From: Candidatus Methylomirabilota bacterium | Lineage (GTDB): Bacteria > Methylomirabilota > Methylomirabilia > Rokubacteriales > CSP1-6 | Direction: 5' to 3' | Assembly (NCBI GenBank): GCA_025922915.1 | Contig: JAICGY010000002.1 | Location: 1 to 33,290 of the forward strand | Length of the DNA stretch: 33,290 bases | Shown here: one piece after another, positions 8,782 to 16,775 of the stretch | Layout of the letters: every line of letters begins with the position of its first letter | How positions within the stretch are numbered: position 1 is the stretch's first letter | Notes under the pieces: model-generated | The model's input: the letters and a program-made list of their open reading frames with translations, nothing else | What the model was told of the DNA's origin: nothing | The model's database searches: none | Translations under genes and position numbers: made by a program

Positions 8782-8938
8782 GCTCGATGCCCTCGCTCCG
8801 CAGTACCTGGTACCTCGCCCCCTCGACGTGGCGGAGCGCCCCTGAGGCCACCCCCCACAGGAACAGGCACAGGGCGGCCAGGCCCATCAGGAGGGAGACG
8901 AGGAATTCTCCGATCACGAGATAGATCAGCTCCTGCAT
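8762..8938 (-). CDS. ccoS: CcoS/FixS-like cbb3 oxidase maturation protein (58 aa)
   Basis: Not in the ORF track. Hand translation: MQELIYLVIGEFLVSLLMGLAALCLFLWGVASGALRHVEGARYQVLRSEGIEHDDSRG. It matches the CcoS pattern SLxxxxxxxxxFLWxVxSG....EGxxxxxL, although GQFDD is replaced by GALRH. It starts 3 nt after the ccoO stop. Confidence 0.75.
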   Translation of the reverse strand: MQELIYLVIGEFLVSLLMGLAALCLFLWGVASGALRHVEGARYQVLRSEGIEHDDSRG

Positions 8939-8941
8939 CGG

Positions 8942-10582
8942 CTACCTGCCCTCCCCCACGATCCCCTTGTGGAAACGCACCAGCGCCTTGGCGTCCGTCC
9001 GGTCCGGCGCCGCGGGGTCCAGGGCCAGCCGGGAGCTGCGATGGGCTTCCTGGTCGGGCCGGTTGAGTCGCTCGAGGACGTCGGGGGCCAGCTTCAGCCG
9101 CTCGCCGGTCAGGGGGTCGTTGAACGCGGAGAAGGACAGCACGAAGTAGCTGATGGCCCAGCGATCCTCCTCGCCCAGCGCATCGGCGAAGGAAGGCATC
9201 GGCGTCCCGTCCAGCCCGGTGGTCATGGTCCGGAAGATGTCGCGCACGTCGGCCCCGCCCTTGAACTGGCCCTTCGTGAAGTCGGCGGGCAGGATCGGGA
9301 AGCCCAGGTCGTCCTCGAGCTGGTCCGCCGACGGGCCGTCACCCTTTCCGGTATCGCCGTGGCACTGGAAGCACTTGGCCTTGACGTACCACTCCTTGCC
9401 CCGGGCCAGCAGCTCCGGCGTGGCCGGCGGGGGCTGACCGATGAGGACGGGCGTCTCCGGCTTCTCCTCCTTCCAGCGCTCGGAGAAGGTCTTGATGAAG
9501 GTCAGCACGGCCAGGCGGTCCTTCTCGTGAAGCTCGTGCCAGGTGGGCATGGCCGTGAACCGGACTCCCGTATTGACCGTCCGGAAGAGGTCGCCGTCGG
9601 TGGGCAGCGATCCCGACGGCGTCGTCCGGAACTTGAAGGCGCCCACGACGAAGTTGCGGGGCCGGGGGTTGAGGAAGGTCGCCACGGGTCCGTTGCCGTC
9701 GCCCTTGACGCCGTGACAGCCCACGCACCGACGCTCGTAGACCTCCCGCCCGCGCGCCTCCAGCTCCTCGGTGCGCGGGATCGACATCACGCTGGCCGAG
9801 AGGTTCTGGGGCTCGAAGACGTCCCGCCAGGCCCCCCGGTTCATCCCGAGCTTCTGGATGTAGGCCACGAGCCCGCGGAGCTCCTCGGTGGGCACGACGA
9901 CCGTCAGGATCTTGCCCTTCCAGGTCTCCAGCGCGTTGTAGGGCTCGGGGAGATTCTCGACGTCCAGCACCGGCGTGCCGTCCGTCTGCTCGGCGAAGGC
10001 GAGCCCCTCGGGATTCGGATGGAGCCGGATCGCCCGGTCGGCCCGGCCGCTGAACAGGGCCGCCAGCGCGGGCGAGTCGCCCAGCGCGGCCTGCCCCTCC
10101 TTCTCGACGACCGGCACGCGGGCGGTCCGGAACAGCCAGGGGAAGCGCGGCATGATCGAGTCGGGCACCACCATGGTCGGATCCCAGTGGTGGGCGTAGT
10201 GCCACTGGTCGGAGTACTTGAGGCCCACGCGCGTGAGGTCGGGGCCGATGCGCCGGGTGGACAGCAGATGGGGCCGGTCGTGCGCGTACTCCCCGACCTG
10301 GGAGACCGGCCCCCAGCGGAATTCCTCGCCGGTGACCGGACGCACGAACTGGCTGTGACAGTACCAGCACCCTTCGCGCTGGTAGACGTCGCGGCCCAGC
10401 TGCTCCAGCGGCGTGTACGGCGTGGCGTCGTACCAGACCCACTTGACCTGCCCGAGCTCGTTGCGCACGGCGCGGGTGGCGCGCGTCTCCCGCGACTCGG
10501 GAATGGCGATCGGCAGGATGCCCTGGACGAAGATGGCCAGCGAGATGAAGAAGAACCCGGCGCCCAGAGCGTAGGTCCTCAC
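8942..10582 (-). CDS. ccoO: cbb3-type cytochrome c oxidase subunit II (CcoO) fused to two additional cytochrome c domains (triheme, 546 aa)
   Basis: N-terminal TM, then the CcoO motifs GRDVYQREGCWYCHSQFVRP, RIGPDLTRVG, WHYAHHWDP and DSIMPRFPWL. These are followed by CVGCHG..GDG..AMP and CFQCHG..GDG..PMP. Confidence 0.92.
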   Translation of the reverse strand: MRTYALGAGFFFISLAIFVQGILPIAIPESRETRATRAVRNELGQVKWVWYDATPYTPLEQLGRDVYQREGCWYCHSQFVRPVTGEEFRWGPVSQVGEYAHDRPHLLSTRRIGPDLTRVGLKYSDQWHYAHHWDPTMVVPDSIMPRFPWLFRTARVPVVEKEGQAALGDSPALAALFSGRADRAIRLHPNPEGLAFAEQTDGTPVLDVENLPEPYNALETWKGKILTVVVPTEELRGLVAYIQKLGMNRGAWRDVFEPQNLSASVMSIPRTEELEARGREVYERRCVGCHGVKGDGNGPVATFLNPRPRNFVVGAFKFRTTPSGSLPTDGDLFRTVNTGVRFTAMPTWHELHEKDRLAVLTFIKTFSERWKEEKPETPVLIGQPPPATPELLARGKEWYVKAKCFQCHGDTGKGDGPSADQLEDDLGFPILPADFTKGQFKGGADVRDIFRTMTTGLDGTPMPSFADALGEEDRWAISYFVLSFSAFNDPLTGERLKLAPDVLERLNRPDQEAHRSSRLALDPAAPDRTDAKALVRFHKGIVGEGR

Positions 10583-10585
10583 CCG

Positions 10586-12001
10586 TCACACTCGGGCCAG
10601 CCGCTCGAGCGGCTGATGGCGGGCCGGCAGGCTCGGCAGGGGCGTGCCGGCCAGGGCGGTCCGCATGAAGTTGTAGACCAGGAGCGACATGCCGACGTCC
10701 ATCGAGATGCCGGCGAAGGTCCGGATGAGCCAGAAGGGCTTCAGGGTGACCATCGTGTCGACCCACTCGGCGCCCCCGATCAGCATGTAGCCCTGTTGCA
10801 GCCCTTGTGAGGAGAGGACCAGCCCCATCGTGGAGATGCCGAGCGTGATGAGCCAGAAGCTCCAGTTCCCGAGCCGGAAGCTCCAGAGGTCGCGGCCCCA
10901 CAACCGCGGCCACACGTAGATGGCCCCGGCCATCGCCCAGACCACGAAGGTCCCGAACACGGTCAGGTGCGAGTGCGAGATCACGAAGTCCGTGAAATGG
11001 GTGGGGCGCTGGATCCACCGAAGGGCTTCCGTCGAGCCCTGGAAGCAGCCGACGAGGTACATGATGGCCCCCATCATCAGGAACTTGGCCGGGAGGTTGC
11101 GAGAGAAGCCCTGCCAGTGCCCGATCATGGTCCCGAAGAAGTTCTGGAGCACGGTCCACACCGGGATGATGAGCATCATCGAGGCGACGATGGCGATGGT
11201 CTCGGCCCAGTCGGCGATCGGGCTGAAGAGGTAGTGGTGGATCCCCACGAACGGGTAGAAGAACGCCAGCGACCAGAAGCCGATCAGCGAGAGCTTGTGG
11301 CTGTAGATCGGAGCCCGCACCGACGCCGGCAGGAAGTAGTAGATCAGCACGTAGCCCGCGGGGGTGATCCAGAGGCCGACCACGTAGTGGATGAACAGCC
11401 CGTGCAGCGCCGCGTTGTTGATCCCGGCCGCGGTCCAGTAGGGCCCGACCACGAGGAGCACGAGGTTGATGCTGGTCCAGACCAGCGCCCCGATGAGGTA
11501 CCAGAGACTCACGTAGAGCTGGCGCTGCACGCGGCGGCCGATGGTCATGAGGTGCTGCAGGGTCAGCAGCCAGACCAGTGCCACCACCACGACCAGGTTG
11601 GGCAGGGGGATCTCCCCCGCCTCCCAGCCGCGGTTGGCGCCCAGCACCGAGAAGGCCAGGAAGGTGGCGGCCAGGTTGAGGTTCCAGATCCAGAGCAGCG
11701 GATAACCCCAGCGCTCCTTCCACATCGGCACCCCGGCCAGACGCGGGGTCACGTAGTAGATGAGCCCGATGAACAGCGTGGAGAAGGCCCCCCAGATGAC
11801 GCCGTTGACGTGCACGGGCCGGAGCCGGCCGAAGGTGAGCCACGACTGCTCGCCGAGGAAGGCGGGGTAGTTGAACTTCGTGGAGACGATCACCCCGATG
11901 GTCGGTGCGAACATCAGCCAGAAGAAGCCCCAGAGGAGCCATCCCCGGATCAGCCGGGGATCGATGAGCTCGTCGTTCCGGGTTCTCGCAACCTCGTTCA
12001 T
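10586..12001 (-). CDS. ccoN: cbb3-type heme-copper oxidase subunit I, divergent (471 aa)
   Basis: ATG at 12001 (MNEVAR) with GGAG RBS. Motifs FGRLRPVHVNG, LYVSLWY, FIHYVVG, YYFLP, YPFVGIHH, HFTDFVISHSH show all six His ligands and the helix-VII Tyr. Confidence 0.93.
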   Translation of the reverse strand: MNEVARTRNDELIDPRLIRGWLLWGFFWLMFAPTIGVIVSTKFNYPAFLGEQSWLTFGRLRPVHVNGVIWGAFSTLFIGLIYYVTPRLAGVPMWKERWGYPLLWIWNLNLAATFLAFSVLGANRGWEAGEIPLPNLVVVVALVWLLTLQHLMTIGRRVQRQLYVSLWYLIGALVWTSINLVLLVVGPYWTAAGINNAALHGLFIHYVVGLWITPAGYVLIYYFLPASVRAPIYSHKLSLIGFWSLAFFYPFVGIHHYLFSPIADWAETIAIVASMMLIIPVWTVLQNFFGTMIGHWQGFSRNLPAKFLMMGAIMYLVGCFQGSTEALRWIQRPTHFTDFVISHSHLTVFGTFVVWAMAGAIYVWPRLWGRDLWSFRLGNWSFWLITLGISTMGLVLSSQGLQQGYMLIGGAEWVDTMVTLKPFWLIRTFAGISMDVGMSLLVYNFMRTALAGTPLPSLPARHQPLERLARV

Positions 12002-12027
12002 CGGTGTGTCTCCGTCCGCAGCCCGGA

Positions 12028-12945
12028 TCAGGCCAGGGGCAGGTCCCGGCTGGCCTCGAACCGCTCGCCACGACTGCTGGTGACCACCACGCGGAGGGGC
12101 CCGCGGTGCCGGGCGCGCACCCGGAAGCCGATGAAGGGGTTGTCGCTGAGCGCCGAGGTCAGCTCGAACCGGCTCAGCGGCTCCGCGCCGTAGCGCACCT
12201 CGATCGTCTGCACGTAGAGGGGCTCGGACTCCTGGACGAACCGGCCCTCGCGAAGGGCCAGGCCCGTGCGGCTGGGATGCCGCATGAGGATCTGGACCAG
12301 CACGAGGGCGTCCCGGCGGACGAGGCCGCGCTTGAGCAGCTCGGGCACCCGGATGACCGGGGCACCGACCTCCTGGGGGGCCACCCGCGTCGGGGCCGGG
12401 CTGGCGCAGCCGCCCACGCCGTCCGGGATGGTGATGGGACGGCTCGCCGACCACCGGCCGTCCCGTGTGCACTCCGCCGTCGCCGTCACCACCGAGCGCC
12501 CCGTGTGCATGCGGCACTGGAACGAGAGGTAGACCTGCCCGTTGGCCGGCGAGAGGTGAAACACTCCCTTGGAGGGAACGGGATCGCTCTCGTTCGTGAC
12601 GTGAATGGTCGTGATGTGATGCGAGGGCTCCATCGGGTGATCCATCCTGATCACGACGGGGACCTTGGCGCCGTCGCCGGCCACGATAGGCACCTCGAGC
12701 CGGGGCCGGTGCAGCCGCTCGAGCGGAGAGGCGGCGTCCCGGTCGTCCAGCGCCCCGGAGTGGCGGCGCGGCGCCGCCGCCCCGGCCGGGCGGGGCGTCT
12801 CGCCGAGGAGCCAGATCGCCCCGGCGGCGAGGCCCAGGAAGCGGCGTCGCGAGCCGAGCCCATCCGGGCGAGACCGGGCCAGGTCGGGCGGCATTCGCGT
12901 GCCCCCGCCCGCCGCCGTCCCGGGCTCGCCCCACCATCGGGTCAT
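12028..12945 (-). CDS. Fused SoxY-SoxZ-like sulfur carrier protein with Tat signal (alternative start 12894)
   Basis: Tat motif SRRRFLG. The SoxY-like domain (VPIVAGDGAKVPV, DPVP..F.LSP) ends in GVGGCAS. The SoxZ-like domain has ILMRHPSRTG, ALSDNPFIGFR and SSRGERFE. Confidence 0.85.
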   Translation of the reverse strand: MTRWWGEPGTAAGGGTRMPPDLARSRPDGLGSRRRFLGLAAGAIWLLGETPRPAGAAAPRRHSGALDDRDAASPLERLHRPRLEVPIVAGDGAKVPVVIRMDHPMEPSHHITTIHVTNESDPVPSKGVFHLSPANGQVYLSFQCRMHTGRSVVTATAECTRDGRWSASRPITIPDGVGGCASPAPTRVAPQEVGAPVIRVPELLKRGLVRRDALVLVQILMRHPSRTGLALREGRFVQESEPLYVQTIEVRYGAEPLSRFELTSALSDNPFIGFRVRARHRGPLRVVVTSSRGERFEASRDLPLA

Positions 12946-12972
12946 CGTCGGGTCACGTCCGCGCCGATCGGC

Positions 12973-13440
12973 TCAGTGCCGGCCGGTGTCGAGCTTGGAG
13001 CCGCGGTTGGCCCAGTAGATGTAGGCTTCCAGGGCCTTCATCGCCGGCCCGTCCGGATCGATCTTGACGCCCTCGTTGGGCTTCTCGATGCACCAGTTGA
13101 TCATGTCCCGCAGCGTGGCGAACGCGTTCATCTGCTCCTGGAACTTCGGGAACTCGTGCGGATGACTGTCGGAGGCGAAGGGATGGCACATGGCGCACGC
13201 CATCCCGGTGTTGGACAGCTTGATGTTCATCTGCTTCTCGGTGTCGGCGTCCCCGTGAAACAGGAGATCGCCGAGCCGGACCTGCTCCATCAGGACCTGC
13301 TGGAACGCGTCGAGCTGCTCCTGCGAGTGCTTCGCCTTGTGGGCGAGGGCCGGCGCCGGGCCCCAGAGCGAGCTGGCACCAGCCCCCAGCAGTCCGAGCA
13401 GCCCCGCTCCCAGCGCGGCCAGCGCGAGTTTCCCCTTCAT
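12973..13440 (-). CDS. Periplasmic monoheme cytochrome c, TsdA/SoxA-like domain with candidate axial Cys (155 aa)
   Basis: Sec signal and a single CAMCH, followed by FPKF...TLRDMINWC...N.G.......AMKALEAYI. This is the pattern of TsdA heme-1 and SoxA domains (YPxY..TLxxRIxxC..MxALxAY). Confidence 0.8.
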   Translation of the reverse strand: MKGKLALAALGAGLLGLLGAGASSLWGPAPALAHKAKHSQEQLDAFQQVLMEQVRLGDLLFHGDADTEKQMNIKLSNTGMACAMCHPFASDSHPHEFPKFQEQMNAFATLRDMINWCIEKPNEGVKIDPDGPAMKALEAYIYWANRGSKLDTGRH

Positions 13441-13459
13441 GGCTCTTCCCCCGGCTCTC

Positions 13460-14602
13460 CTAGTAGGGCCACATGCGATCGGCGATCCTGGGATGCAGGA
13501 TCTGGTTGACGTTGTCCGCCGTGCCGGAATCCACCACGGACTCGGCGAAGACCTCCTTGCGGCCCCACATCACGTACTCGTTCTCGATCCGGCCGGCCGC
13601 GCCGGCCGTGAGCTTCGAGTAGCCCACGCCGTCGAAGTGGTCCCCGGGGTCGGCCCGGATCATGGGCTTGGTCAGCGGGGGCACGCCCTGCGGCGCATAG
13701 GGCCACGGCCAGGACGTGGCCAGCATCCCGATGGAGCGCATCGAGCCGAGCTCGTTGTACAGCACCTGATGCGTGTGGCCGTGGATGTTGGTGACGTTGC
13801 TGAAGGGCTTGAGGATCTCGTTGACCTCCCGCCAGTCGCGCGTCCAGAAGTTCCATGGGGGGTAGTACTCGTAGAGGGGCGTGTGGGTGAAGACCACGAG
13901 CGGCCGGTCCTTGGCCCAGCCCGACACCGTCTGCTGGAGCCACTGGCGCTGCTCGTCGCCGACGCCGGCCCAGGGCCCGGCCACGCTGCCGTCCAGCGTG
14001 GCCATGTGGCCCATCCGCTCCTTCGGCGACATCTTCTTGGCGGACCAGTAGTCGGGGGCGAACCCCACGGTGTTGAGGCCGATGAAGCGCACGCCGTTGT
14101 GGTCGAACGTCCAGGGGGTCTTGCCGAACATCCGTTCCCACTTGGCGCCCATGTCCAGGTACCAGTCGTGCTCACCGGGGATGAAGTGCTTCTTGATGGT
14201 GAGCTCCTTGAGGATGTCCGCTCCCAGGTCTATCTCCACGGGATCCCCGAGCTGCGCCAGGTCCCCGCCGAAGATGAGGAAGTCCGCGGGCGGGCTCATG
14301 GCCTTGATCTCCTTCACGGCCCGCACCGTCTTGTCCACGAACCGGGTGTTGACGTCCTTGGGGTACAGATGGGTGTCCGAGAGCCAGGCGAACTTGAAGG
14401 CGGCCTGCTGGCCGAAGGCCAGGTCGAGCGTGTTGATGACGGGGAACCATCCGACCGAGGCCACGCCGGCCGCGGTGCCGGCCAGGATGGCCTTGTTGAT
14501 GAACAGCCTTCGAGTGATCGCCAGGGATCCATCCGGGCGCCCGCCCGTGTCGATCTCCATGGCGACCTGCCGCGGGTCGAGGTCGACCTCCCGTGGCTCC
14601 AT
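13460..14602 (-). CDS. Tat-exported calcineurin-like metallophosphoesterase (380 aa)
   Basis: ATG at 14602 after AAAGGAG and Tat motif ITRRLFI. The five metal motifs are SDTH, GGDLAQ, PGEHD, FTHTP and HGHTHQ. Confidence 0.9.
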   Translation of the reverse strand: MEPREVDLDPRQVAMEIDTGGRPDGSLAITRRLFINKAILAGTAAGVASVGWFPVINTLDLAFGQQAAFKFAWLSDTHLYPKDVNTRFVDKTVRAVKEIKAMSPPADFLIFGGDLAQLGDPVEIDLGADILKELTIKKHFIPGEHDWYLDMGAKWERMFGKTPWTFDHNGVRFIGLNTVGFAPDYWSAKKMSPKERMGHMATLDGSVAGPWAGVGDEQRQWLQQTVSGWAKDRPLVVFTHTPLYEYYPPWNFWTRDWREVNEILKPFSNVTNIHGHTHQVLYNELGSMRSIGMLATSWPWPYAPQGVPPLTKPMIRADPGDHFDGVGYSKLTAGAAGRIENEYVMWGRKEVFAESVVDSGTADNVNQILHPRIADRMWPY

Positions 14603-14619
14603 GGCCGCTCCTTTCTCGG

Positions 14620-15339
14620 CTACTTCTTCTTGGCCAGATCGATGGTGACGGTAGCGGTCTCCTTGGCCTTGACGGTGACGGGCGTCTCCACCTCCTCGGT
14701 GTGCTCCTGCCAGGCCACCAGCGTGTACGCTCCCGGCGGCACGTCCTTGATGGTGAACGAGCCATCCTTCCCGGTGACGGCATAGTAGGGGTTGTCGGCC
14801 ACGTAGACCCAGGCCAGCATCCAGCCGTGGGCGTCGCACTCGACGCGCATGATGCCGGTCTTCTTGATCGGCTTCTTGATGGTCTGGCCCTGGATGGGCA
14901 GGGCGACGTTGAAGGCCGTCAGCTTGCCGAAGAAGCCGTGAGTGTTGTGGAGCACGGGATCCGAGTTGTGGATGGCCACGTCGCCCATCCGGATCACCTG
15001 GACGTGGGGCAGGAACCGGCAGTCCTTGTTGTCGATCACCGGGGGCTGGGCCGGTTTCTCCCAGGCCTTCCCCCTCTCCACGCCCTTGAGATACACGAAG
15101 CTGCCTTCCACCGCCTTGTCCGGGCCCAGCAGGATGCGCGCCTGCTCGCGAATGCCACCGCACACCTCCTTGTCCTTGGTGGGGATGATCTTCCGGGGCG
15201 ACGGGACCGCTCCGGTGAACGTCACCGTGCCCTTGATGGTCCCCCCATCGGTGACCGAGATCGCCTGATAGCTCGCGGCCGGCCCGCTCGACAGCAGCAG
15301 GCCGGTCAGCAGGGTGACGGGTCCGATGAGCCGACGCAT
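14620..15339 (-). CDS. Secreted protein with cupredoxin-like His..CxxHxxM motif and carboxypeptidase-regulatory-like (Ig) domain (239 aa)
   Basis: ATG at 15339 after AAAAGGAG and a Sec signal. Motifs GTIKGTV, NSDPVLHNTH, VECDAHGWM, YAVTGKDGSFTIKDVPPGAYTLVAW. Confidence 0.82.
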   Translation of the reverse strand: MRRLIGPVTLLTGLLLSSGPAASYQAISVTDGGTIKGTVTFTGAVPSPRKIIPTKDKEVCGGIREQARILLGPDKAVEGSFVYLKGVERGKAWEKPAQPPVIDNKDCRFLPHVQVIRMGDVAIHNSDPVLHNTHGFFGKLTAFNVALPIQGQTIKKPIKKTGIMRVECDAHGWMLAWVYVADNPYYAVTGKDGSFTIKDVPPGAYTLVAWQEHTEEVETPVTVKAKETATVTIDLAKKK

Positions 15340-15382
15340 GAAGCGGTCTCCTTTTCGACCCGGCCGCCGGCGGCCGGGCACG

Positions 15383-16213
15383 TCAGAGCTGGTCGTGAGC
15401 GCGCGAGCCGGGCGGCAGATCGATGCGGTCCTCGCGCGAATGGCAGACGAGGCACGAGCGGCCGCCGATCTCGGACACCAGCGAGTAGGCGATGCCGTGG
15501 GAGGCCCAGACGATGACGTCGTAGCCCTGGTGCGTGACCATCTTGAACTTCGGAGCGGCGTCGATGCCGAGGTCCCGGTATTTCTCGAACGGGATGACGA
15601 AGAGGGAGATGTCCCGTCCATCCATCTTGAAATGGAGAGCGGCGACCTCCAGGTCGCCCAGGTTGGCGATTCGCCCGCCGACCAGGTTGAGGTCGTCCCG
15701 CGTGAGCGTGGGCAGGTTGACGTTGAAGTTGAGCCGGGCCTTGAACCATTCCTCGGCGGCCCGGGGCGTGACCTCGCTGATGTCGAGGGGGAGGGTGCCG
15801 AGGGCCAGCTTGCGGTGCTGCTCGACGGAGGCGGCGGCCAGGTGCACGAGCGGCGATCGGTCCAGCCGCCAGAGCTGCACGCCGTCGGACGTCAGCCCGG
15901 TCTGGACCCCGAACCCGGCCAGGAGGCCGGCGACGAACAGCGCGCCGCCGGCCACGAGGTGCCGTCCCCACCGCCAGGCCGGCGCCACCGGCACGGTGTC
16001 GAGCATCTGGAGGACCCGAGCCCGCAGCCGCTCGGGCACCGGGTCCGGCCGGAGGGGGGCGATGTACTCGTCGGCGAAGCTCCGCTCCAGGTCCACCAGC
16101 CTCTGGCAGCCCCAGCAGCCGGCGAAGTGGTCCTCCAGGAGCGCGCGCTCCTCGTCCGGAAGCTCGCCGTCCAGATACTCGAAGAGACGGGCGCGCGCCT
16201 GCTTACAGAGCAT
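15383..16213 (-). CDS. Transmembrane anti-sigma factor (zf-HC2/ZAS) with C-terminal CXXCH (276 aa)
   Basis: N-terminal C..YLDGEL..HFAGCWGC (HxxxCxxC), one TM helix and an extracytoplasmic domain ending SCLVCH. It overlaps the sigma gene. Confidence 0.9.
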   Translation of the reverse strand: MLCKQARARLFEYLDGELPDEERALLEDHFAGCWGCQRLVDLERSFADEYIAPLRPDPVPERLRARVLQMLDTVPVAPAWRWGRHLVAGGALFVAGLLAGFGVQTGLTSDGVQLWRLDRSPLVHLAAASVEQHRKLALGTLPLDISEVTPRAAEEWFKARLNFNVNLPTLTRDDLNLVGGRIANLGDLEVAALHFKMDGRDISLFVIPFEKYRDLGIDAAPKFKMVTHQGYDVIVWASHGIAYSLVSEIGGRSCLVCHSREDRIDLPPGSRAHDQL

Positions 16214-16775
16214 GGCCGTTCCGGGCGCGCGCCGAGATCGCCGGGGCCGCCTCCTGGAGCGCGAGCCGGACGAGATTGCGGCCCCGGAAGAGGCGTGACA
16301 TGACCGTGCCCACCGGTGCGCCGACGACGGTCGCGATCTGCTGGTACGACAGTCCCTCGATCTCGCGCAGCTCGACGACCTCCCGGAGGACGACGGGCAG
16401 GCGCCGGATGGCGTCCCGCACCTCCTGCAGGGCCGCCCGCCGCAGCAGGATCTCCTCCGGGTTCAGCGGGACCGGGTAGAGCAGCACGTCCCGGACCGCA
16501 TCCGCAGCGACCCCCTCCTGGGAATCACGGTCCTCGAGCGGGCGCGCCCGGCGGCGGCGCATACGGTCGATCTCGGCGTTCTTCATGATCGTCAGCATCC
16601 AGACCTTGAAGCTCAGCTGAGGCTTGTAGGAGGAGAAGGCTTGCAGGGCCTTGAGGAGCGATTCCTGAAGGAGATCCTCGGCTTCCGCGTCGTTCCGGCT
16701 CAGCAGCCGGGCGTACCCGTAGAGCGTGGGCAGATGGCTCAGAGCGAGGTCCTGGAACGCCGATTCGTGCTCCAT
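16203..16775 (-). CDS. ECF RNA polymerase sigma-70 factor (190 aa)
   Basis: Region 2 EAEDLLQE..KA...FKVWMLTIMKN and region 4 LREVVELREIEGLSYQQIA...PVGTVMSRLFRGR. Confidence 0.95.
   Translation of the reverse strand: MEHESAFQDLALSHLPTLYGYARLLSRNDAEAEDLLQESLLKALQAFSSYKPQLSFKVWMLTIMKNAEIDRMRRRRARPLEDRDSQEGVAADAVRDVLLYPVPLNPEEILLRRAALQEVRDAIRRLPVVLREVVELREIEGLSYQQIATVVGAPVGTVMSRLFRGRNLVRLALQEAAPAISARARNGHAL

Follow-up and report, generated by a model that had tools for sequence, protein, structure and literature searches.

The question raised by this locus is what function is served by a small c-type cytochrome encoded in a window of 33,290 nucleotides (the whole stretch of DNA that was analysed), and with which partners the protein works. 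The gene occupies positions 12973..13440 of the minus strand, stop codon included, as delimited by its open reading frame and a Pfam match, and encodes a monohaem SoxA/TsdA-domain cytochrome of 155 amino acids; motif coordinates were counted by codon from position 13440. Its N-terminus, with K2, K4, a hydrophobic run, A31-L-A33 and H34, reads as that of a Sec-exported precursor, in which residues 1–33 (13342..13440) would form a putative signal peptide cleaved after A-L-A; A31, A33 and H34 are conserved, and the segment is modelled with low pLDDT. The mature form, of about 122 residues, would start at His34 with the conserved stretch H34-K-x-K-H38 (13327..13341), in which H34 is found in 120/121 and H38 in 121/121 of the close relatives; speculatively, this histidine pair could bind copper or another metal. 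Further along the chain lie a CAMCH haem-c attachment motif (13183..13197; C82, C85 and the proximal His86), evident from both sequence and alignment, and Cys117 within TLRDMINWC (13090..13092), and the protein contains no cysteine beyond these three. The codon count bears out the original prediction of one CAMCH and a third cysteine, and the putative signal peptide agrees with the predicted mature protein of about 120 residues. Judged from sequence, the reading frame is not a chance one, because it matches PF21342, is matched by 2577 proteins and has relatives in 531 of 599 candidate stretches.

On the combined evidence of sequence profiles and a predicted structure, the protein is a single-domain, single-haem member of the SoxA/TsdA cytochrome-c domain family, as had been proposed from its motifs. 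The Pfam family PF21342 (SoxA-TsdA_cyt-c) aligns with residues 76–149 and scores 35.6 bits, above its gathering threshold of 27 bits (E 9.7e-9), and a search of the organism's own genome with this profile returns 36.6 bits at the cytochrome site; the NCBIfam SoxA equivalog TIGR04484 scores 29.6 bits, below its 110-bit cut-off. As a single query against PDB sequences, the cytochrome matches Rhodovulum SoxA (E 2.1e-5) and Allochromatium vinosum TsdA (E 0.0075). An AlphaFold2 model, built from a 73-row alignment hand-picked out of 271 proteins, reaches a mean pLDDT of 85.4; with this model, Foldseek places TsdA (best E 1.4e-4) and SoxA (E 2e-3 and 1.1e-2) in its top rows, and a probability of at least 0.94 is reached by SoxA/TsdA entries only. 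Structural superposition by VIA-align gives Z 11.6 and an rmsd of 3.5 Å over 109 residues for TsdA (chain 14–136), and Z 11.1 with 1.5 Å over 88 residues at 27% identity for Rhodovulum SoxA (chain 53–143), the tightest structural match, while the next unrelated fold has Z 6.0.

A likeness to the catalytic domain of SoxA had also been claimed, and this part of the prediction has to be revised. When the family profile was run against the PDB in order to score the SoxA and TsdA domains one by one, the N-terminal domain of Rhodovulum SoxA (40–148) obtained 43.4 bits and its C-terminal domain (155–253) 15.9 bits; the corresponding values for Paracoccus SoxA are 30.8 and 14.9 bits, and the N-terminal domain of TsdA scores 35.6 bits. 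The available portion of Grabarczyk et al. 2015 (PMC4423706) places the SoxA active site in a domain numbered 177–282, which, allowing for the signal-peptide offset, is the C-terminal domain. Because the bit scores favour the N-terminal domain and the active site lies in the C-terminal one, the nearest relative, by profile score, is the N-terminal Cys-ligated haem-1 domain of SoxA and not the catalytic domain. This haem-1 domain (Rhodovulum sulfidophilum 1H31 chain A, about 40–148; Paracoccus 2C1D), which is the best sequence match, shares with the cytochrome the CXXCH motif, a ligand cysteine some 31–34 residues later and an M-I-N-x-C motif; unlike it, the cytochrome stands alone as a polypeptide, has a conserved N-terminal helix of its own and the H-K-x-K-H start, and is encoded with a metallophosphoesterase, whereas in SoxA the haem-1 domain forms one chain with the catalytic domain and acts together with SoxX. 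To our knowledge, no catalytic role has been assigned to SoxA haem 1.

Cys-ligated c-type haems are rare, and the known bacterial cases are mainly the sulfur enzymes SoxAX and TsdA. In the present protein, Cys117 aligns with Cys114 of Rhodovulum SoxA (chain position) and with the ligand cysteine of the TsdA motif R-I-G-D-C, so that the placing of the third cysteine at the haem-ligand position has held up; it is kept in 121/121 close relatives and in 125/130 ungapped distant representatives, and it belongs to the only five invariant columns of alignment A1 (G57, C82, H86, P98 and C117). The haem iron would accordingly be coordinated by His86 and by the thiolate of Cys117, the predicted distal ligand; Met113 (13102..13104), equally present in 121/121 close relatives, could serve as an alternative or switching ligand. 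The residue at this position, four before the cysteine, had been singled out in the original prediction as a methionine in place of the usual arginine, which is correct and understates the change. According to the available part of PMC4423706, thiosulfate in TsdA is contacted around the ligand Cys123 by Arg109, Arg119 and Ser127, and Arg119 is termed invariant in TsdA and SoxA. When assigned by their offsets from the ligand cysteine (−14, −4 and +4) and by alignment, in which R-I-G-D-C faces M-I-N-W-C, the three positions are occupied by Gln103, Met113 and Pro121, each in 121/121 members of the close family. As aligned, the entire TsdA thiosulfate pocket is therefore exchanged for another, equally conserved set of residues. 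The catalytic N-terminal domain of TsdA (A. vinosum, 4WQ7) has the same fold and an aligned ligand cysteine, but the cytochrome differs from TsdA in having no second electron-transfer haem domain, and no dihaem form was found among the 7 matches of a search for longer homologues. The label "thiosulfate dehydrogenase" given by JGI to many of the 120 listed matches, which are 68–99% identical to the cytochrome, is probably an over-annotation, because the thiosulfate-contact residues are replaced and the second haem domain is lacking.

The universal neighbour of the cytochrome is a metallophosphoesterase, which the original prediction had passed over. It is a Tat-signal protein of 389 amino acids without cysteine (13460..14629, minus strand, start inferred), and the cytochrome gene begins 19 nt past its stop codon. 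Neighbourhoods were compared in 80 loci, the best of 531 confirmed ones from species-representative genomes, throughout which the cytochrome is 64–81% identical; a metallophosphoesterase gene lies directly upstream on the same strand in 73/73 loci with at least 1300 nt of upstream sequence, and in 77/80 loci overall, the remaining 3 being cut by contig ends. Alignment A2, comprising the window protein and 48 of 70 listed locus references (of the others, 1 contained a stop codon and 21 were set aside unchecked), has a mean column identity of 72% and retains all classical metal-ligand motifs save an altered motif III. The usual form of this motif in metallophosphoesterases is G-N-H-D/E, and it reads G-E-H-D in 49/49 rows of A2; the glutamate concerned, E153, might alter the metal preference or redox behaviour. 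Foldseek returns GpdQ, Rv0805 and purple acid phosphatases as the closest solved relatives of the metallophosphoesterase, and its 50 listed rows do not include SoxB; likewise, the SoxB model TIGR04486 finds no match in the organism's own genome (89.3% complete), the metallophosphoesterase gene included. The metallophosphoesterase and SoxB may still have a superfamily fold in common.

Physical association of the two proteins was modelled with residues 62–389 of the metallophosphoesterase, haem and residues 34–155 of the cytochrome as input, along with 3 controls. The resulting ipSAE values are 0.90, 0.77 and 0.76 (median 0.77), and the best control reaches 0.00. In a benchmark, the median mark was attained by 116/157 solved complexes and by 2/215 mismatched pairs, counts that are approximate here since user-made alignments and a riding haem fall outside the calibration. 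The runs have at least 86% of their contacts in common, with a partner pLDDT of at least 89. The predicted interface involves the Cys face of the cytochrome, with residues 78–91 (the CXXCH stretch), Q103, C117 and K120-P121. The hydrolase contributes Y89, N94 and R96 (beside metal motif I), D213, W259, W307-P310 and 375–383, and the residues involved are mostly invariant. When the metallophosphoesterase is modelled alone, confidence is low exactly at 306–320 and 369–389. We know of no solved metallophosphoesterase–cytochrome complex that the model could have memorised. The prediction supports a complex in which the cytochrome would bind the metallophosphoesterase across its Cys face.

Both genes belong to a larger operon, the constant unit of which is a copper protein, the metallophosphoesterase, the Cys-haem cytochrome and a divergent cbb3 oxidase. 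The copper protein is secreted and combines a C-x2-H-x2-M motif of the blue-copper type with a CarboxypepD_reg-like domain (14620..15333, minus strand, start inferred); its gene lies upstream of the metallophosphoesterase in 72/80 loci, and the C..H..M motif is kept in 74/74 copies across all 83 loci. The oxidase consists of a divergent cbb3-type subunit I (CcoN-like; 10586..12001, minus strand, start ATG 12001 inferred), which matches cbb3 CcoN with E 6.5e-45 as against 2e-5 for NorB, and of a fused CcoO-CcoP-like cytochrome subunit (8942..10582, minus strand) that combines FixO with two cytochrome c domains and carries three haem sites. A CcoN-like gene is located downstream in 47/80 loci and upstream in 8/80. 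No gene for a SoxX-like small cytochrome was found within 8942–16775. At the other end of the operon, an anti-sigma factor (15383–16213) and an ECF sigma factor (16203–16775) are encoded, both on the minus strand. The anti-sigma factor bears a cytoplasmic H-x3-C-x2-C zinc motif, followed by one transmembrane segment and a C-terminal CLVCH; this CXXCH is kept in 18/18 homologues found in the loci, and the C-terminal region may, as far as its motifs indicate, constitute a haem-c-bearing periplasmic sensor domain. In operons of this type, RefSeq also names "sulfite exporter TauE/SafE" genes (locus L030, 9612–10388; locus L082, 13353–14081), which were considered as a sulfur clue and rejected as such: the L030 homologue matches Pfam DsbD_2 (149 bits), of the cytochrome-biogenesis type, and, because it stands beside a P-type ATPase and a SCO protein, it probably serves oxidase or cytochrome maturation and not sulfur transport.

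A hint of sulfur metabolism comes from the gene on the other side of the cytochrome, a fusion of SoxY with SoxZ that has a Tat-like RRRF signal and a conserved G-x-G-G-C180 (12028..12945, minus strand), whose ATG lies 27 nt downstream of the end of the cytochrome gene. The G-x-G-G-C carrier motif is kept in at least 90% of 30 fusion sequences. The SoxY half also passes the Pfam Desulfoferrodoxin model (36.8 bits against a cut-off of 22.2), and an M-x-H-P-M-x3-H motif together with Cys159 is found in at least 90% of the same 30 sequences. Such a fusion follows the cytochrome in 29/73 loci with at least 1000 nt of downstream sequence (31/80 overall) and is absent from the other 44/73; in 8 loci, of Nitrospirota type, the position that SoxYZ occupies in Rokubacteria is taken by a cytochrome P460-family gene. 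The P460-family match amounts to 41 bits in Pfam for locus L030 (8691–9206), and the same slot is occupied in L004, L007, L032, L040, L059, L068 and L080. Moreover, no SoxY Pfam match was obtained in 3/5 whole genomes that carry the module, the three being assemblies of unstated completeness. SoxYZ is therefore read as a lineage-specific accessory and not an obligatory partner. A further arrangement is seen in the 3 rhizobial plasmid loci that were inspected, which contain the module or a remnant of it, with separate SoxY, SoxZ, cytochrome c and flavoprotein genes at the end of the cluster. In one of these (L081, Sinorhizobium meliloti pSymA), the cytochrome at 8908–9378 is annotated as a hypothetical protein and lies beside IS21 and IS256; the oxidase genes are gone, a P-type ATPase fragment is left, and the SoxY, SoxZ, cytochrome and flavoprotein genes are adjacent.

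Given the constant operon unit, the cbb3-type CcoN match and the fusion of FixO with a dihaem cytochrome, the protein is read here as a haem subunit at the substrate end of a respiratory chain. The reading that we favour, with a probability of roughly 55%, is that the cytochrome is the haem subunit of a two-protein periplasmic metallophosphoesterase–cytochrome enzyme that feeds its own cbb3 oxidase, with a sulfur compound as the guessed substrate and SoxYZ as an add-on. In this mechanism, the Sec-exported cytochrome, with its His86/Cys117 haem, would dock with its CXXCH/Cys face at the edge of the metallophosphoesterase's dimetal site. The haem would take up the electrons released from the substrate at the composite site of haem and dimetal centre and hand them to the operon's blue-copper-type protein, from which they would travel along the three haems of the fused CcoO/P subunit to O2 at the dedicated cbb3-type oxidase. 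For the substrate, the best guess is a sulfur compound, in view of the descent from SoxA/TsdA and of the repeated association with SoxYZ; the P460 variants are a reason for caution. Several points weigh against the favoured reading as a whole: the complex is a matter of model confidence, calibrated by a benchmark that had neither riding ligand nor user alignments; the His/Cys ligation is drawn from alignment, with Met113 as a possible alternative; the metallophosphoesterase resembles hydrolases such as GpdQ, Rv0805 and purple acid phosphatases, and we know of no redox role shown for the dimetal site of such an enzyme; the sulfur link is not universal, as the loci without the fusion, those with P460 and the genomes without SoxY demonstrate; and the search for longer homologues yielded no credible natural fusion of metallophosphoesterase and cytochrome. 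A bolder version holds that the composite site takes over what SoxA and SoxB do and needs no carrier protein, whereby a substrate such as sulfite or thiosulfate is oxidatively joined to Cys117, two electrons reach the oxidase by way of haem and copper protein, and the dimetal centre hydrolyses the Cys-S-sulfonate to sulfate. This version we consider unlikely; if true, the composite site would constitute a sulfur-oxyanion dehydrogenase of new architecture that works without molybdenum and is wired to an oxidase, distributed over many phyla with SoxYZ or P460 as add-ons.

The alternative put forward in the original prediction, a minimal stand-alone SoxA-like enzyme that joins a sulfur compound oxidatively to the cysteine of the adjacent SoxYZ fusion, draws on the SoxA/TsdA fold with its invariant cysteine at the ligand position, on the close spacing of the two genes together with the conserved carrier motif, on the adjacency in 29/73 loci, and on a contig (P0275) in which a separate SoxY directly follows the cytochrome. 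In addition, the organism's own genome (89.3% complete) contains a single SoxA-domain gene and a single SoxY, both in the window, and no SoxB, so the set in the window would be its only Sox-like set. Nevertheless, we judge this function improbable for the cytochrome: the protein retains its 64–81% identity across all 80 loci although 44/73 have no fusion, the arginines and the serine of the thiosulfate site (in the available part of PMC4423706) are exchanged for methionine, glutamine and proline, neither SoxX nor a second haem domain is available to accept the second electron, the best match is the presumably non-catalytic haem-1 domain of SoxA, and the Cys face is covered by the metallophosphoesterase in the predicted complex. 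Since the fusion is adjacent in 29/73 loci only and 3/5 genomes have no SoxY match, the loading of SoxYZ cannot be the general task of the family; the observation that the fusion adjoins the cytochrome at this locus stands, and loading is possible as a lineage-specific extra. The fallback offered in the original prediction, that the substrate is not thiosulfate or that the role is non-catalytic, may still apply.

Two other readings dispense with a catalytic haem. The cytochrome could be a plain, non-catalytic electron shuttle for the dedicated cbb3 oxidase, with the cysteine as a structural or potential-tuning ligand, which would suit a small protein with one haem, devoid of thiosulfate-binding residues and encoded in an oxidase operon beside a blue-copper-type protein. 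This appears doubtful, because the potential of Cys-ligated haems is very low (at or below −400 mV for SoxAX, according to the available part of PMC6879331) and is therefore suited to a position near the substrate and not to a simple donor to an oxidase; the fused CcoO/P subunit, moreover, already has three haem sites, and a shuttle would explain neither the invariable presence of the metallophosphoesterase (73/73) nor the predicted interface. That same pairing would be accounted for if the haem were a redox or gas sensor that switches hydrolysis by the metallophosphoesterase, whose nearest relatives include the phosphodiesterases GpdQ and Rv0805 and over whose active-site rim the predicted interface is tight; by analogy, haems with His/Cys ligation have a sensory function in several proteins, CooA among them. 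The constant blue-copper-type protein and oxidase of the operon, however, point to electron flow instead of signalling, no periplasmic phosphodiester substrate is evident, and the regulator of the operon, where present, is the ECF sigma/anti-sigma pair, so that a sensory role is very unlikely.

Compared with known systems, the module has a set of parts analogous to that of the Sox system: a cytochrome with a Cys-haem, a carrier made of SoxY and SoxZ (here in one chain) and, from the metallophosphoesterase superfamily, a dimetal hydrolase. It differs from the Sox system in that SoxX is missing, the hydrolase is close to GpdQ and Rv0805 and falls below the SoxB model in the search of the organism's own genome, the carrier is optional, and a cbb3 oxidase of its own and a copper protein are physically linked to the module. 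SoxA/TsdA-type Cys-haem cytochromes are a known kind; the enzyme architecture around this one is possibly new. A full-text search outside subscription journals found no description of the cytochrome, the metallophosphoesterase pair or the operon, and two of the papers considered (PMC6620896 and PMC13500833) are, in their available parts, unrelated to them. The significance of the locus lies in a compact, highly conserved subfamily that has lost the thiosulfate pocket and gained an obligate metallophosphoesterase partner together with a dedicated oxidase. Should the pair prove to be a genuine enzyme, it would represent a new wiring of a hydrolase-type dimetal site to respiration, and cultivable hosts such as Cupriavidus necator would be at hand for finding the substrate; in addition, the result is a warning against the automatic label of thiosulfate dehydrogenase that many members carry.

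The 2577 proteins that match the cytochrome at E ≤ 0.001 are 85–272 amino acids long, and a library of 1.84 billion proteins clustered at 50% identity yields 291 representatives at the same threshold, so few that the family is regarded as compact. It nevertheless extends over many phyla: the 80 loci come from Methylomirabilota/Rokubacteria, Nitrospirota, Tectomicrobia, Myxococcota, Cupriavidus, Ralstonia, Thauera, Thiocapsa, Thiobacillus and others, and the family also occurs on rhizobial plasmids, where 35/41 matching plasmid records are from Sinorhizobium. Longer homologues of 220–360 amino acids were inspected as a functional lead and yielded none; the domain is C-terminal in 16/18 that were scanned, one of which has a named N-terminal domain (TPR), and the other two are P0133, which is frameshifted, and P0158, with no family. 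Among the 7 matches of the search for longer homologues, no convincing natural fusion of metallophosphoesterase and cytochrome was found. P0273, a single-contig protein of 431 amino acids with parts of both, lacks the C-terminus of the hydrolase and the N-terminus of the cytochrome; P0275, which joins the cytochrome to SoxY, reads through into SoxY's own signal peptide; and the frameshifted P0133 is likewise not a real fusion.

No RNA run is listed among the sequencing runs that contain this DNA; three runs labelled metatranscriptomic and flagged as probably DNA have 0.09–0.27 of the sampled words, as short contigs, and are uninformative on expression. DNA near-identical to the window segment 12000–15400 is found in 17 soil-metagenome runs, with half or more of the sampled words, and the 20 runs that contain it in total come from 11 studies; the organism or its close kin is therefore widespread in soils.
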